From NCBI GenBank assembly GCA_963796685.1, contig CAWCMR010000011.1, forward strand, positions 64,001 through 128,000: a stretch of DNA of 64,000 nucleotides, given 5' to 3'. Source of the DNA: an uncultured delta proteobacterium (GTDB taxonomy: Bacteria > Myxococcota_A > Polyangia > Fen-1088). Below the pieces are notes generated by a model. It was not told the origin of the DNA, ran no database searches, and was given only the letters and a program-made list of their open reading frames with translations. Both the position numbers and the translations under genes were made by a program. Of the stretch, positions 10,301-14,136 are shown piece by piece (within the stretch, counting starts at the first letter, position 1; each line of letters opens with the position of its first letter).

Positions 10301-10673
10301 CGTAAAACTCCGGTTGTACGTTCATATCAGCAAGTGGTGTGCCACTAGCCGCGTGGACGATCTCTGGTCGCCTTCCCAAGAATTCTCGGTCTTGCCGCTG
10401 CGTCAGCACCTCAGAATCCTGAGGCTTCCAGGGGAGCCTCACGAGTATTTGCACTTCACCAAGGTCAGTCGATTCCGTGCCCGTGGCTTGGGAGCCAGAG
10501 CGGGCACGAAATCGACATAGACGCATTTTGGTGCCGCGTGGTCGCTGCTAGAGCACCGAACGGGTTGAAAGTGCCGAGAATTCAAGAAGTTGCTACGCAC
10601 GTGCACGCTCCGATCCCCTCGCCCCGCGCAGCGGGGAGAGGGCTAGGGTGAGCATCTGTGTTCCTAGTCAAGG

Positions 10674-11624
10674 TCAAATCTCCGTGGTTTGCCAGCGCGA
10701 GTTAGAGCGCAACATGGCGTTGAGGATGGTGAGCAGCTTGTGCATACAGGCGACGATGGCGACCTTCTTGAGCTTTCCTGCGGCGACTAGCCGAGCGTGG
10801 AATCTGGCGATGACTGGGTTGAAGCGTATGGCAGCTAGGGTGGCCATGTAGAGGACGTTGCGGACTTCGGTGCGGCCGCCCCAGATGATGCGGCGGCCGC
10901 GCAGGGTGCCGCTGTCCCGGTTGAGTGGAGCAACACCGATGAGGGCTGCGATCTGCTTGCGGTTGAGGGTTCCAGTCTCAGGGGCATGGGACAGGATGGT
11001 GCGAGAGAGGACGGGGCCAGCTCCTGGAACGCTTTGGATGATGTCGTCCTTGGCTTTCCAGACCGAGGAATTGCCGATGGCCGTGTCGATGTCGTTGTCC
11101 ACCTCGTCGAGCTGCTTTTCGAGGTAGGAGATGGTCCTGCGGATGGCCCTCTGCACGCGCTTGGAGGGAGGGTCAGCGCTGAGACGGTTTTTCTCGGCAG
11201 TGATCATGTCGACCACCTGCCTGCGCCTGGCGAGAAGGGCGGCAAGCTCCTGGGTCTCTGCGTCGACAGGCGGGCGGACGGGTGGCCGTATTCGTTCGGC
11301 GAAAAGAGCGATCATGGCGGCGTCCAGGGCATCGGTCTTCGCGAGACAGCCGTTGGCCTTGGCGAAGTCGCGAACGCGTCTGGGGTTGACGACGACAGCG
11401 GGCAGGTTGGCAGCGAGGAGCGCCGCAAGCACGCGTCGTTCGAGTCCACCGGTGGCCTCAAGAACGATGAGGGTGACGTTCAGGGCGGCCAACTCTTTGC
11501 AAAGAGCGCGCACCGTGTTGTCTTGATTGGGGGTGGACCAGGCTCTTTTGGCCGGCAAGACATGGACGTCGAGCGTGGCCTTGGAGACGTCGATACCTAC
11601 GAATGTGTCAGCTGTTGGTGTCAC
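10674..11624 (-). CDS. IS110 DEDD recombinase/transposase (316 aa)
   Basis: GIDVSK, LEATG, KTDALD (DEDD) and RDSG catalytic Ser; GTG start with AAGGAG RBS. Confidence 0.95.
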
Positions 11625-11848
11625 GGGCTCCTTTCGCGAAGGACTTCTGCTCTTGGTATGCCCAGCCTTGCGGAGTATGCGGGCTCGAGGCCCTCTCATC
11701 TGTTCGGGCTGCTTGTGAAAGTCGACACGACGACCCTCGCTCACCCACGGTCTTTGTGACCTGAGGGGCATCGGTCTGTCGTGCCGTTGAATCTCGTCGT
11801 GCTCCTTCGCCTTTGGGGGCGAGCGTAGCCCAGCTTTGCTGGGCGAAG

Positions 11849-13923
11849 GTGCGTCCGGCATGGACGCAGAACAAGAGGTGAAGCCATGAAATAGCCAAGT
11901 CCTCTGGGGACCCTGACGGAGGGAACCTCCCACCTACGAGACAAGGGCGCCGGTCTGGAGCACCAGGCCAGACGGGCCGCAAGGCCCGTCTCCCGCGAGG
12001 AGGTGTCTGGTGGAAGTCTATGGTGCAGCGCCGAACCGAACGAAAGTGAAGCGCCGTAAGGCGTGGGTACCGCTGGGCAAGCTGGCCTTCGGCGGCAAAG
12101 CCCAATATTCGTCGGGCGGCCCGCGTAGTGGCGACGGAGTCGGTGCGAAGTTCTGCGTTCTTACCCGGAGAGACCTCTTGGCCTCCGCGGCGAGGAATCG
12201 CAAGCGGAATTCATCGAGAACGAAAGGACGAGATGAAGAAGGGACAAGAGGAGTCGGATGGTCGCGTAATACCGGAAGGCCGGCGAAAGCCGGTTCCAAC
12301 CGCCAGAAGGCGGGGAGGGAAGGCGACCACGGCCAGCAAAGAGGCAAGGCAGCTCGGACTGTTTCCCGAGACAGCCGACAACCCGAAAGGGACCACCGCC
12401 CAAGCGGATCCGGGCCAACCCGTGCCTGCGCGGAGCGAGGTGCCGAAGTCGGGGAACGAGGAAGAGAGGACCTTGCCGCCCATGACGATGGAGGAGGTAG
12501 CGAGCGAAGGAAACCTGAAAAGAGCGTTCGAGCAAGTGAAGGCCAACAAAGGCGCACCTGGACCGGACCGGCAAAGCGTGGGGGAAGTGGCGAAGGGGTT
12601 GGGGACGCTGATACCGGCGCTGTCGCGGTCGCTGCTCGACGGGACATACCGAGTCGGAGACATCCGGCGGGTATGGATACCGAAGAGCGGTGACGGGCGG
12701 CGGGGCCTTGGCATACCGAACGTGGTGGACCGCGTGGTTCAGCAGGCCGTGCACCAAGTGCTCGGTCCGCATTATGAGCCGACGTTTCACCCGTCGAGCC
12801 ACGGTTTCCGACCTGGGCGCAGCTGTCACACGGCCATCGCCGAGGCCAAGCAGTATCTGGAGGAAGGGTACGAATGGGTGGTCGACCTCGACCTGGAAAA
12901 GTTCTTTGACCGGGTCCACTGGCAACGGCTGGTGGCGCGGCTAGAACAGAGGGTTAAGGACCGGCGGCTCATCGAGCTCATCTGGCAGATGCTGAAAGCC
13001 AAGGTGGTGATGCCCGACGGAGTGGTGGTGGCGACGGAAGAAGGAGTGCCACAAGGTGGTCCGCTTTCGCCGTTACTGAGCAATATCGTGCTGGACGAGC
13101 TCGACCGCGAGCTTGCCCAACGCGGTCACCGCTTCGTGCGCTATGCGGACGACTGCAACATCTACGTCGGAAGCGAGCGCTCGGGTCAGCGTGTGATGGC
13201 CAGCGTGGTCAAGTTCATCGAAGGCCGGATGCGGTTGAAGGTGAACTTGGCCAAGAGCGCGGTGGCCCGACCGGAAGAGCGGCACTTTCTGGGATTCCGG
13301 CTGCGGCGCGAGCCGCTGACGGGGGAAGCGGAGGTGCTGCTGTCGGCGCGGAGCAAAAGCCGCATTGACGAGAAGGTCCGAGAGCTGACGCCGCGAAACC
13401 TTGGGCAGTCCCTCAAGGGCTGCATCAAACAGGTCAACGCGTATTTGCTCGGATGGATCGGCTTCTTCTGTATCTGCACGGCCGCGGAAGAGCGGACGCT
13501 GCAGGCACTCGACGCACACATCAGGCGGCGGCTGCGAGCGATAGTGCTACGGCACTGGAAACGCAGACGCTTCATCGCACGACACCTCATCAGCCTGGGG
13601 GTGAGACCGAAAACCGCGTGGCAAGGGGTCTACAAGGGGCATCGCTCCTGGTGGGCGCTGAGCCACACATCGGTAGTTGAACGAGGACTGCGCAACGCAT
13701 ATTTTGCCGAACGCGGGCTTGTCAGCCTGGCCGAGCGGTGGAAGGACCATCACGCCTTGGACTTCATGGACCCGGCCCTGGAGCCAGGATAGCTGCGGGC
13801 AGCAATGCCGGCGCTGGACTACGGGTCGCTCCCGAACGCCAGCGTCCCGAAGAGCCGGATGTGAGGCCCACAAGTCCGGTTCTGTGAGAGCTGGGGGAGG
13901 GTAACCTCCCCTGGCTACTCGAC
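11849..13923 (+). mobile_element. Group II intron 2 (class IIC-like)
   Basis: 5' GTGCGTCCGGCATGGACGCAG; short domain V gagccggatgtgaggcccacaagtccggttc; ends ...ctactcgAC; boundaries exact by comparison with the empty site at 37301/37302; EBS1 candidate CTTC (12087-12090) pairs with exon GAAG. Confidence 0.92.
12233..13792 (+). CDS. ltrA: Group II intron reverse transcriptase/maturase (class C type)
   Basis: NLKRAFEQVKANKGAPGPD, LGIPNVVDRVVQQA, GVPQGGPLSPLLSN, YADD; no En domain; start could be 12482. Confidence 0.93.
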   Translation: MKKGQEESDGRVIPEGRRKPVPTARRRGGKATTASKEARQLGLFPETADNPKGTTAQADPGQPVPARSEVPKSGNEEERTLPPMTMEEVASEGNLKRAFEQVKANKGAPGPDRQSVGEVAKGLGTLIPALSRSLLDGTYRVGDIRRVWIPKSGDGRRGLGIPNVVDRVVQQAVHQVLGPHYEPTFHPSSHGFRPGRSCHTAIAEAKQYLEEGYEWVVDLDLEKFFDRVHWQRLVARLEQRVKDRRLIELIWQMLKAKVVMPDGVVVATEEGVPQGGPLSPLLSNIVLDELDRELAQRGHRFVRYADDCNIYVGSERSGQRVMASVVKFIEGRMRLKVNLAKSAVARPEERHFLGFRLRREPLTGEAEVLLSARSKSRIDEKVRELTPRNLGQSLKGCIKQVNAYLLGWIGFFCICTAAEERTLQALDAHIRRRLRAIVLRHWKRRRFIARHLISLGVRPKTAWQGVYKGHRSWWALSHTSVVERGLRNAYFAERGLVSLAERWKDHHALDFMDPALEPG

Positions 13924-14136
13924 CGAGGGGGGACCGGGGGACTGCGAGCGAGAGCGAGCCAGTCCCCCGTAAGATACAAGGGGCCAGCGCACTCTCTCGC
14001 ATGGCCGAACCCCTCACCCGACGCGCTTCGCGCGTCGACCTCTCCCCGCTGCGCGGGGCGAGGTGAATCTTCCGAGTACCTCGCAAGCTCTCGATTCTGC
14101 ACAGCATTCAACCCGTTCGGTGCTCTAGGGTGTGAC

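Follow-up and report, generated by a model that had tools for sequence, protein, structure and literature searches.

How do mobile elements with quite different ways of choosing a site come to lie one inside another, and does each of them depend on the one that encloses it? The question is raised by a stretch of 64,000 nucleotides (the window) from an uncultured delta proteobacterium, positions 64,001 to 128,000 of contig CAWCMR010000011.1 in assembly GCA_963796685.1, a genome bin of 7.3 Mb in 26 contigs with 64-66% G+C that is called G000 below. At window positions 10548-14128, a 253-bp element bounded by terminal inverted repeats (TIRs), a miniature inverted-repeat transposable element (MITE), encloses a 1253-bp insertion sequence (IS) of the IS110 family, which itself encloses a 2075-bp group IIC intron. 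The nested locus is real and all of its coordinates were confirmed. An earlier note on this DNA had counted a fourth layer, a doublet of repetitive extragenic palindromes (REPs), and had joined the layers into a targeting chain; its nesting order, its boundaries, its identification of the IS110 element and the intron and the mobility of the outer TIR element were borne out, whilst the fourth layer and the chain were not.

Three successive insertions, each by a known targeting mechanism, very probably explain the locus: Firstly, a non-autonomous derivative of an IS1182-family element, in which TIRs and IS ends of ~28 and ~45 nt frame a REP-doublet core, would have inserted as a 253-bp unit at CTAG between two genes. 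Secondly, the IS110 element would have entered the left REP arm by bridge-RNA-guided recombination at the core CT of GCCC-CT-CACCC (hyphens within sequences mark junctions throughout). Thirdly, the group IIC intron would have retro-inserted on the opposite strand, 4 nt past a hairpin in the leader of the bridge RNA, at a stem-loop followed by an RRAG-like exon motif. This order in time may be gauged from the identity among the copies of each layer, which is 91-100% for the outer element, 100% for the IS and 99.8-100% for the intron.

Boundaries of the nest

The outer limits are set by the TIR sequence CTAGAGCACCGAACGGGTTGAA, which stands at 10548-10569 (+) and 14107-14128 (-) with 0 mismatches. 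Between them the IS110 element, at 10653-13980, splits a REP unit at gggtgAG-gggcc and leaves 105 bp of REP-like MITE sequence on its left and 148 bp on its right; with the intron taken out, its two parts (1196 + 57 nt) have 100% identity to a second copy at 36106-37358. The intron, at 11849-13923, interrupts ggcgaag-cgagg, and its excision restores the contiguous left end of the IS, GCTGGGCGAAG-CGAGGGG, as it stands in that second copy. The empty REP site is represented by 11 other paired MITE copies of the same type, which read ...ggctagggtgag-gggccagcgc unbroken. The features of the nest and related features elsewhere in the window are collected in Table 1; the genes flanking the nest gave no informative family in Pfam.

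Table 1. Coordinates in the window of the nested elements, their parts and related repeats.
Feature	Position	Strand	Basis
Left TIR of MITE (CTAG + 18 nt)	10548..10569		perfect reverse complement of 14107-14128
Left arm of type-A MITE (TIR, subterminal stretch, left REP half, to IS110 core AG 10651-10652)	10548..10652		aligns with 12 other type-A copies
Left part of REP-doublet unit, common with array 34633-37803	10592..10652		repeat family D3, 13 copies of 61 nt
IS110-family element, 1253 bp without intron	10653..13980	-	100% identity to 6 intron-free copies; core CT on both sides
Right end (RE), 21 nt: -35-like TTGACT, left-donor bases ACAGATG	10653..10673	-	junction reading
IS110 recombinase gene, 316 aa, GTG start	10674..11624	-	Pfam and NCBIfam
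Bridge-RNA donor-binding stem-loop (LE 197-246): LDG AACAGAUG 11697-11704, discontiguous RDG AUAC..AAG 11667-11678	11660..11709	-	donor match, consensus fold
Bridge-RNA target-binding stem-loop (LE 121-182): LTG AUGCCCCU 11764-11771, RTG GGGUGAG 11740-11746	11724..11785	-	guide match, covariation
Hairpin H2 (LE 62-78; GCCCAGC TTT GCTGGGC on + strand), then GAAG and intron	11828..11844		DNA fold
Group IIC intron, antisense to IS	11849..13923	+	Rfam RF02001, RF00029
Intron-encoded reverse transcriptase/maturase, 519 aa from ATG	12233..13792	+	RVT_1, GIIM
Distal 57 nt of IS left end: core CT, -10-like TATCTT 13971-13976, hairpin H1 13936-13968	13924..13980	-	identical to 37302-37358 of second copy
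Right arm of type-A MITE (right REP half, subterminal stretch, TIR 14107-14128)	13981..14128		type-A alignment
Tandem array of 172/180-bp REP-doublet units, ~155 bp common with MITE core	34633..37803		repeat families D1-D3; period 180, 8.2 copies up to 36091
Intron-free copy of same IS110 in REP-array unit	36106..37358	-	100% identity
45-bp remnant of IS110 left-end tip	45216..45260	-	repeat family D10
LE, left end of the IS110 element; LTG and RTG, left and right target guides; LDG and RDG, left and right donor guides.

An RNA-guided IS110 element in a REP arm

The recombinase carries PF01548 DEDD_Tnp_IS110 (82.9 bits) and PF02371 Transposase_20 (61.6 bits) and matches the NCBIfam model NF033542, 'IS110 family RNA-guided transposase', at 212.7 bits against a cut-off of 140; its nearest named relative, likewise from an uncultured delta proteobacterium, is 99% identical, the others 68% or less. 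All seven copies of the element in G000 are flanked alike, as gggtgAG-CATCTG...ACAAG-ggg(c/t), which in the orientation of the IS gives NNGCCC-CT-CACCC, with CT at both junctions and no TIRs. The guides that would read this site are found in the 281-nt left end, the two target guides on the 5' and 3' sides, respectively, of an internal loop of the first stem-loop: the left target guide equals the left target (LT) plus the core, the right target guide is the complement of the core plus CACCC, the left donor guide equals the last bases of the right end and the right donor guide is a split complement of CTTGTAT, with the joined ends of a circular form (RE-CT-LE) reading ACAGATG-CT-TGTAT. Pairing of the right donor guide is discontiguous and less certain than that of the other three.

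The assignment is strengthened by comparison with four homologous elements (L030, L031, L032 and L075, relatives of 61-68% protein identity), in all of which guides and sites change jointly on a retained scaffold. Where G000 has CACCC with GGGUGAG, L030-L032 have CTCCC with GGGAGAG and are inserted adjoining CTCTCCC; the left target guides of L030, L031 and L032 (UCGGCCU, UAACCCU and CAACCCU) lie beside left targets TCGGC-CT, TAACC-CT and TAACC-CT, the guide following the target across 4 different targets; and ACAGACG in L031 appears in both the left donor guide and the right end, a joint change of guide and left donor. A consensus fold of seven left ends has two stem-loops with 36 pairs, 9 of them with changes on both sides. 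Hairpin H2 of the leader is kept in 4 homologous left ends, with changes on both sides in 3 of its 7 pairs (n = 4 only). From these comparisons the IS110 layer is predicted, with good reason, to encode a bridge RNA that guides insertion at GCCC-CT-CACCC.

A sigma-70-like promoter for this RNA is predicted, and can be read solely over the RE-CT-LE circle junction, as TTGACT, 17 nt and TATCTT (LE 5-10); a -35 element TTGAC(N) lies at equal distance from the core in L030, L031, L032 and L075.

In all of this the element closely follows IS621, whose bridge RNA has an architecture matching this left end (PMC11208160). IS621 and ISPpu10 have the same DEDD and Tnp domains, a CT core, no TIRs and no target duplication (PMC11208160, PMC1525189), and IS621 shares the long left end with target- and donor-binding stem-loops, a left target guide that equals left target plus core, a right target guide that pairs with core plus right target, and a promoter that spans the circle junction, as is predicted here (PMC11208160). 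IS110 elements in REP arms have likewise long been known (PMC1525189; ISPpu10 preprint). The element differs from IS621 in the length of its left end (281 nt against 191 nt; PMC11208160), in the extra leader hairpins H1-H3, in a right target guide of 7 nt and in that two bases after the core in the DNA encoding the left target guide also match the target.

One candidate RNA in the second IS copy was rejected: an Rfam search with E up to 10 placed sX15 at 37098-37249 (+), at 29.4 bits against a gathering score of 55 and on the strand opposite to the recombinase. This sub-threshold match overlaps the bridge-RNA region on the opposite strand, and the Xanthomonadaceae small RNA sX15 may itself be derived from an IS110 end.

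A group IIC intron in the bridge-RNA leader

Group II introns begin with GTGYG and end with AY, and this one begins with GTGCG and ends with ...GAC. Rfam recognises domains 1-4 at 11989-12159 (RF02001, 79.7 bits) and domains 5-6 at 13850-13923 (RF00029, 46.6 bits, full model length). The intron-encoded protein combines RVT_1 and GIIM with no endonuclease domain and matches TIGR04416 at 368 bits; its nearest relatives of solved structure are the GsI-IIC reverse transcriptase 6ar1 (369 bits, E 5e-109), 7uim (293) and 5hhj (237), with LtrA at 134 bits. G000 holds 11 full-length copies with 99.76-100% identity, which suggests that the intron is self-splicing and retromobile.

Its choice of site is uniform. 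In all 10 copies that retain a 5' flank, a stem-loop ends 0-4 nt upstream of the intron, and the last exon bases are GAAG, GGAG, ATAG, AGAG, GAGG or TAGG. REP arms supply several of these stems, and two of the copies stand in tandem. The window copy lies between LE 57 and 58, 4 nt past H2, a hairpin of the same shape as the other intron sites of G000, and there it separates the -10 element and H1 from H2 and both guide loops. An intron occupies the same left-end site once more, at G000:C25:1543315, where the left end is a solo one. The IS part of that locus has 3 differences in 83 nt from the consensus and its intron 2 in 2075; the greater divergence of the IS part fits a separate, later homing rather than descent from a composite that moved.

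Because 2075 antisense nucleotides stand between the junction promoter and the guide loops, the intron would disable expression of the bridge RNA and the recombinase in cis. The ends of the composite are intact, so the six identical intron-free copies could still move it, though only by supplying bridge RNA in trans.

Group IIC introns such as B.h.I1, GsI-IIC and those associated with attC sites share the reverse transcriptase and maturase without an endonuclease, the site past a stem-loop and the short exon motif (PMC1702495, PMC7306698), as well as the occurrence of many near-identical copies; the present intron departs from them in that none of its stem-loops is followed by a T-run, several being REP arms, and in that two copies sit in the leader of a bridge-RNA gene. 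In the literature covered, no work combining group IIC introns and IS110 was found. A parallel is Pseudomonas putida KT2440, where ISPpu9 (7 of 7), ISPpu10 (7 of 7) and a group II intron (2 of 9) are associated with REPs (PMC1525189, Table 1); the same three players meet in that one genome but are listed as separate insertions, whereas here they are nested in one another inside a TIR element.

Two further observations concern introns. Tandem or near-tandem pairs of the group IIC intron lie at G000:C8:379444-383672 and C25:481403-485921, and each copy of the C8 pair has its own site because the 80-bp spacer repeats the target hairpin. A second group II intron, which Rfam places in a different class (RF02005 D1D4-6, 143.8 bits; RF00029 at 6141-6216), is also present in the window, at 4282-6216.

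The outer element is mobile and has a likely IS1182-family parent

The earlier note had rested the outer boundary on the TIRs alone. In the window, a scan for the TIR with up to 3 mismatches returns these 2 matches only (none of 100 shuffles gave any), but the same tolerance over G000 gives 70 matches, which form 23 inverted pairs and supersede that position. Sorted by interior, 13 pairs belong to type A, among them the window copy and a diverged one; members of this type measure ~250 bp and have a REP doublet at the core. Type B (~249 bp) has 5 pairs and type C (163 bp) has 4, and a single further copy measures 657 bp; types A, B and C are alike in their terminal 22-28 nt only, their interiors being unrelated. 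The remaining 24 TIRs have no partner and represent truncated copies, either of these types or of another that is rarer. The copies are small, lack an open reading frame (ORF), stand in unrelated flanks and carry CTAG at both ends in nearly every intact case (2 have CTAC). In the family at large, 28 of 89 genomes carry the TIR, including 12 of 12 of the genus, and a reversed-pattern control had no match in any of the 89. The type-A MITE folds as a single TIR-to-TIR hairpin of -92.5 kcal/mol, against -45.8 +/- 3.7 for shuffles (z = -12.6).

Searches for empty sites had mixed results. No orthologous empty site for the window MITE was found when its flanks were searched in 5 congeners, of which only G002 matched, with synteny ending at about window position 9763; the comparison therefore turned to a paralogous pair, filled in G002 and empty in G000, in which a repeated gene of G002 reads ctgc[CTAG...CTAG]cttc and copies of that gene in G000 read ctgcCCAGcttc. 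Within G000, comparison of the flanks of 24 copies with the genome gave no clean paralogous empty site; two left flanks are repeats that end at the MITE. An immobile outer layer, with a TIR pair occurring nowhere else and no empty site, had been envisaged as the contrary outcome, and it is set aside by the 23 pairs together with this filled and empty pair. The host gene of the filled site is a gene fragment containing a CxxC-rich stretch; G000:C9 has it at 12 or more sites (~7.5-129.5 kb), and it is present on C5, C4 and C10 as well.

The parent of the family was approached through the 657-bp copy, which is single-copy DNA in G000 and retains remnants of a transposase, its first ~50 and last ~60 residues. 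When the family genomes were searched with the C-terminal piece, the congener G012 gave 4 matching places, each in a 550-aa open frame; one element read end to end is 1838 bp long, with TIRs two mismatches from the window TIR and a 530-aa ORF that matches NF033551 IS1182 at 320.5 bits (cut-off 270) and also DUF772, DDE_Tnp_1 and DDE_Tnp_1_6. Related elements of 1865-1873 bp occur in G021, and in G073 a TIR adjoins the match. The 657-bp copy is likely an internally deleted form of an IS1182-family parent, an intact representative of which would be the G012 element. Type A is identical to the 657-bp copy over its first 28 nt and, across its last 70 nt, matches it in 53 of the 72 columns of the alignment (the resemblance to the right end of that copy extends over ~45 nt), and by virtue of these shared termini the MITE layer is taken to be IS1182-type ends around foreign DNA.

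The IS630 and IS5 relatives have a CTAG/TA target habit, and the earlier suggestion of an IS630/IS5-like partner came near: the transposase found is of the IS1182 family, a relative of IS5. No match to PF13358 (IS630-type) was found in G000, and inverted pairs of the 18-nt TIR core there (600-4000 bp, up to 5 mismatches) comprise only the window copy, the 657-bp copy and chance pairs; TIR listings show no long TIR pairs in G002 or G070. Elements of G000 with PF01609 were rejected as partner on account of their different ends, and so was a 1.65-kb TIR pair in G001, which is a MITE with an IS4-like element in its REP and an 11-bp duplication. MITEs of the IS5 superfamily resemble the present ones in their TIRs, small size, lack of an ORF, high copy number, subfamilies with one TIR and a parent IS that shares their ends; the difference is that the parent here is of the IS1182 family and that the interior is a REP doublet, found also in a tandem array, instead of a shortened IS.

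Some observations on neighbouring families may be added. The rejected G001 pair (L027, G001:C7:355972-358640, element 501-2169) is a related REP-core MITE; its IS4-like guest has 16-bp TIRs CATAGGTGCTAACCAC, a 364-aa DDE_Tnp_1 ORF and the 11-bp duplication AGGGCGAGGGT, and it constitutes a further case of a MITE-borne REP used as a landing site. Another repeat family of G000 ends in ...GACACCAGCCTC followed by CTAG, CTGG or CTAC, at C13:38137 and 23 other places (e.g. C13:600828, C13:174616 and C8:387168), and may be a second element with the same target taste as the MITE. A 2045-bp IS with CTAG ends and a 580-aa ORF occurs at C13:620746 and C25:1938438.

Is the REP doublet a layer of its own?

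The 155-bp unit shared by type A and the array consists of two inverted REP-like halves and forms the inner arms of the MITE hairpin. Its REP character lies in short GC-rich palindromes, highly repeated and in inverted pairs; the 11-mer of the arm, GCCCCTCACCC, occurs 121 times in G000 against 17.6 expected. A REPIN likewise has as its core a pair of inverted REPs that fold on each other, to which the type-A core may be likened, and REPINs are associated with RAYT, a Y1 transposase; the present case differs in that no RAYT was found in G000 (PF01797, 0 matches in a bin 88.6% complete, the positive control having matched in 6 of 14 reference genomes).

The alternative that survives best, although it is improbable, holds that the doublet is a fourth and independently mobile REPIN-like layer that inserted into a pre-existing, shorter MITE. 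What speaks for it is that the unit also occurs outside MITEs, arranged in a tandem array and, as single halves, in 20 of 41 related genomes, when only G000 and G002 showed the full type-A MITE and G001 a diverged form of it; by this distribution the REP is older and wider than the type-A MITE. MITE types B and C, moreover, carry other interiors. Set against this are the lack of a RAYT match in G000, the place of the doublet as the inner arms of the MITE hairpin, and the fact that no type-A shell, that is, no MITE copy with the same subterminal sequence minus the doublet, was found, types A, B and C sharing little beyond the ~22-28 nt of their ends. With neither a doublet-free shell nor a RAYT, the locus is counted as three insertion events and one compositional layer: the doublet supplies inner hairpin arms between ends that match the 657-bp IS, and its separate insertion, which the four-layer description required, is not demonstrated.

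Is there a targeting chain?

A shade less probable again is that the nest works as a functional targeting chain, in which the MITE multiplies IS110 sites, the IS110 element transports the intron to further REPs and the intron in turn relies on the hairpin of the IS. Such a view draws on the perfect IS110 target in the MITE core, on the two apparently independent hits of the IS hairpin and on the related MITE core in G001 that hosts another IS. It can also appeal to IS621, for which a 22-bp donor suffices with bridge RNA in trans and which moves multi-kilobase cargo (PMC11208160), so that a composite with intact ends is movable in principle.

The numbers in G000 point the other way. The claim that the outer element spreads IS110 landing sites meets the finding that 8 of the 121 intact copies of GCCCCTCACCC lie in paired type-A MITEs (10 lie in the window array) and that one of the 7 IS110 copies lies in a MITE. 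Nor does the IS appear to carry the intron: two of the 10 flanked intron copies lie in an IS left end, H2 is occupied by an intron in 2 of 12 left ends, and there is one full composite. Across the 89 family genomes, the 200-nt IS-intron junction is matched end to end in G000 alone; in G002 the left end is matched at full length 8 times and as a solo end 3 times, every match ending at the junction and none extending to the intron half. In metagenome contigs the 36-mer of the junction had 0 matches, and the first 24 nt of the intron were found in 7 contigs, in none of them within an IS end, one following a very similar hairpin, GTAGGCCGGCTTAGCCGGCCGAAG. The orientation of the intron counts against the chain as well, since splicing of an antisense intron cannot repair the IS transcript, and the guide loops are separated by the insertion from the 57 nt of the left end that lie nearest the promoter.

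The proposition that each element uses a palindrome of the next holds for one layer: the intron does follow stem-loops, in 10 of 10 cases, whereas the IS110 element recognises one REP-arm sequence by bridge-RNA pairing and the MITE takes CTAG in host DNA. The locus reflects REP-like hairpins acting as shared landing pads, among which the leader hairpin of the IS is one more look-alike, and not a co-adapted relay.

Weighing three insertions against assembly error

Least probable by far is an assembly artefact in which the window IS copy was threaded through an intron because the junction of left end and intron truly exists elsewhere, at the C25 solo left end. In its favour, near-identical repeats are involved (7 copies of the IS, 11 of the intron), contig G000:C11 starts one base before a full intron copy (C11:2-2076), which marks an intron copy as an assembly break, and no contig bridges the junctions. 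Against it, the two joins are base-exact and follow the site rules, many other copies of these repeats stand in unique flanks on the same contigs, and the window intron differs at 2 positions from the copy at C25:1543397 and is therefore not a copy of that locus.

Junction bridging was examined in 4 runs (X1, X2, X3 and X6), all as short Logan contigs, with at least 31 letters required on each side. The intron-free joint 11848>13924 is present in X1, X3 and X6, and a 99%-like intron occurs in a wetland run; the joints 10568>14108 and 10650>13979 were not used as evidence, their sides being shorter than 30 letters.

Several points nevertheless weigh against three insertions as described here. 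In the 4 runs no contig bridges an IS-intron, REP-IS or MITE-flank junction, and continuity rests on the assembly because those runs exist only as such short contigs; the bin itself is 88.6% complete with 6.48% contamination. For the outer layer, the one empty site found is paralogous and reads CCAG instead of CTAG, duplication of TA and of CTAG give the same empty site and are not distinguishable, no intact IS1182 partner was found in G000, and the three insertions do not account for the REP doublet between IS ends. For the IS110 layer, the fold of the whole left end has a z-score of only -1.96, the junction promoter was read by eye, and a scan of the linear sequence 10500-14200 gave 0 promoters and 2 terminator-like sites, fewer than the shuffle mean of 3.2. 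The lack of a promoter in the linear scan is to be expected, and is not proof, as the predicted promoter exists only across the circle junction.

Solo left ends and possible self-targeting

G000 contains not only full copies of the IS110 element but also solo left ends of ~140 bp, at C25:1109419-1109562, C25:234099-234238, C8:212939-213083 and C25:1543315-1545528, and shorter remnants at C1:32343-32446, window 45216-45260 and C25:486409-486471. The ~140-bp ends all stop between LE 140 and 141, inside the DNA encoding the left target guide, and are directly followed by the right half of the REP target. This guide-coding DNA reads GCCC-CT-CA, which is the target of the element itself through two bases past the core, a stretch over which related elements mismatch; because those two bases also match, the element carries a copy of its own target. 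In G002 there are three more solo ends (L115, L116 and L117), two of which are joined directly to a full IS as a tandem, the arrangement being flank, IS, solo end, flank.

These remnants suggest that the recombinase attacks its own guide-coding DNA, and a recombinase event at the CT there would explain the common boundary better than chance deletion at 4 bp of homology. Two routes could lead to a solo end: the element might insert into itself and then lose one copy, or a deletion might take place against the right-end junction, a route that would be akin to the half-match reactions described in a preprint (10.64898/2026.08.31.748434). A wider reading joins both anomalies and is offered tentatively, its odds being poor: the intron would treat the leader hairpin as a true homing site, a hyperparasite that, by uncoupling the junction promoter from the guide loops, silences IS copies which can still be moved in trans, and the guide-coding DNA would be a working pseudo-target that leaves solo ends of ~140 bp. 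If this were so, the outer junction of a solo end would be a perfect new target, which would explain the tandems of IS and solo end in G002, and engineered bridge-RNA cassettes with matching bases after the guide DNA would be liable to self-insertion or self-deletion.

Implications

Nested insertion as such is an instance of a well-known phenomenon, and the targeting rule of every layer is already known. The fresh points are the repeated use by the intron of a conserved hairpin in the bridge-RNA leader and the putative scars of self-targeting; a literature search, in the parts of the papers it covered, did not find an interrupted bridge-RNA leader or self-targeting of guide DNA treated. The locus thereby offers natural material for the study of bridge recombinases, on the effect of an interrupted leader and on the encounter of a recombinase with its own guide-coding DNA, and it connects a MITE family of three different interiors with a likely parent in the IS1182 family. 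One 3.6-kb stretch brings together three modes of site choice: a TIR element transposes into CTAG, an RNA bridge directs recombination into a REP arm and a ribozyme retro-inserts past a hairpin. It shows how unrelated mobile elements come to share GC-rich palindromes as landing pads.

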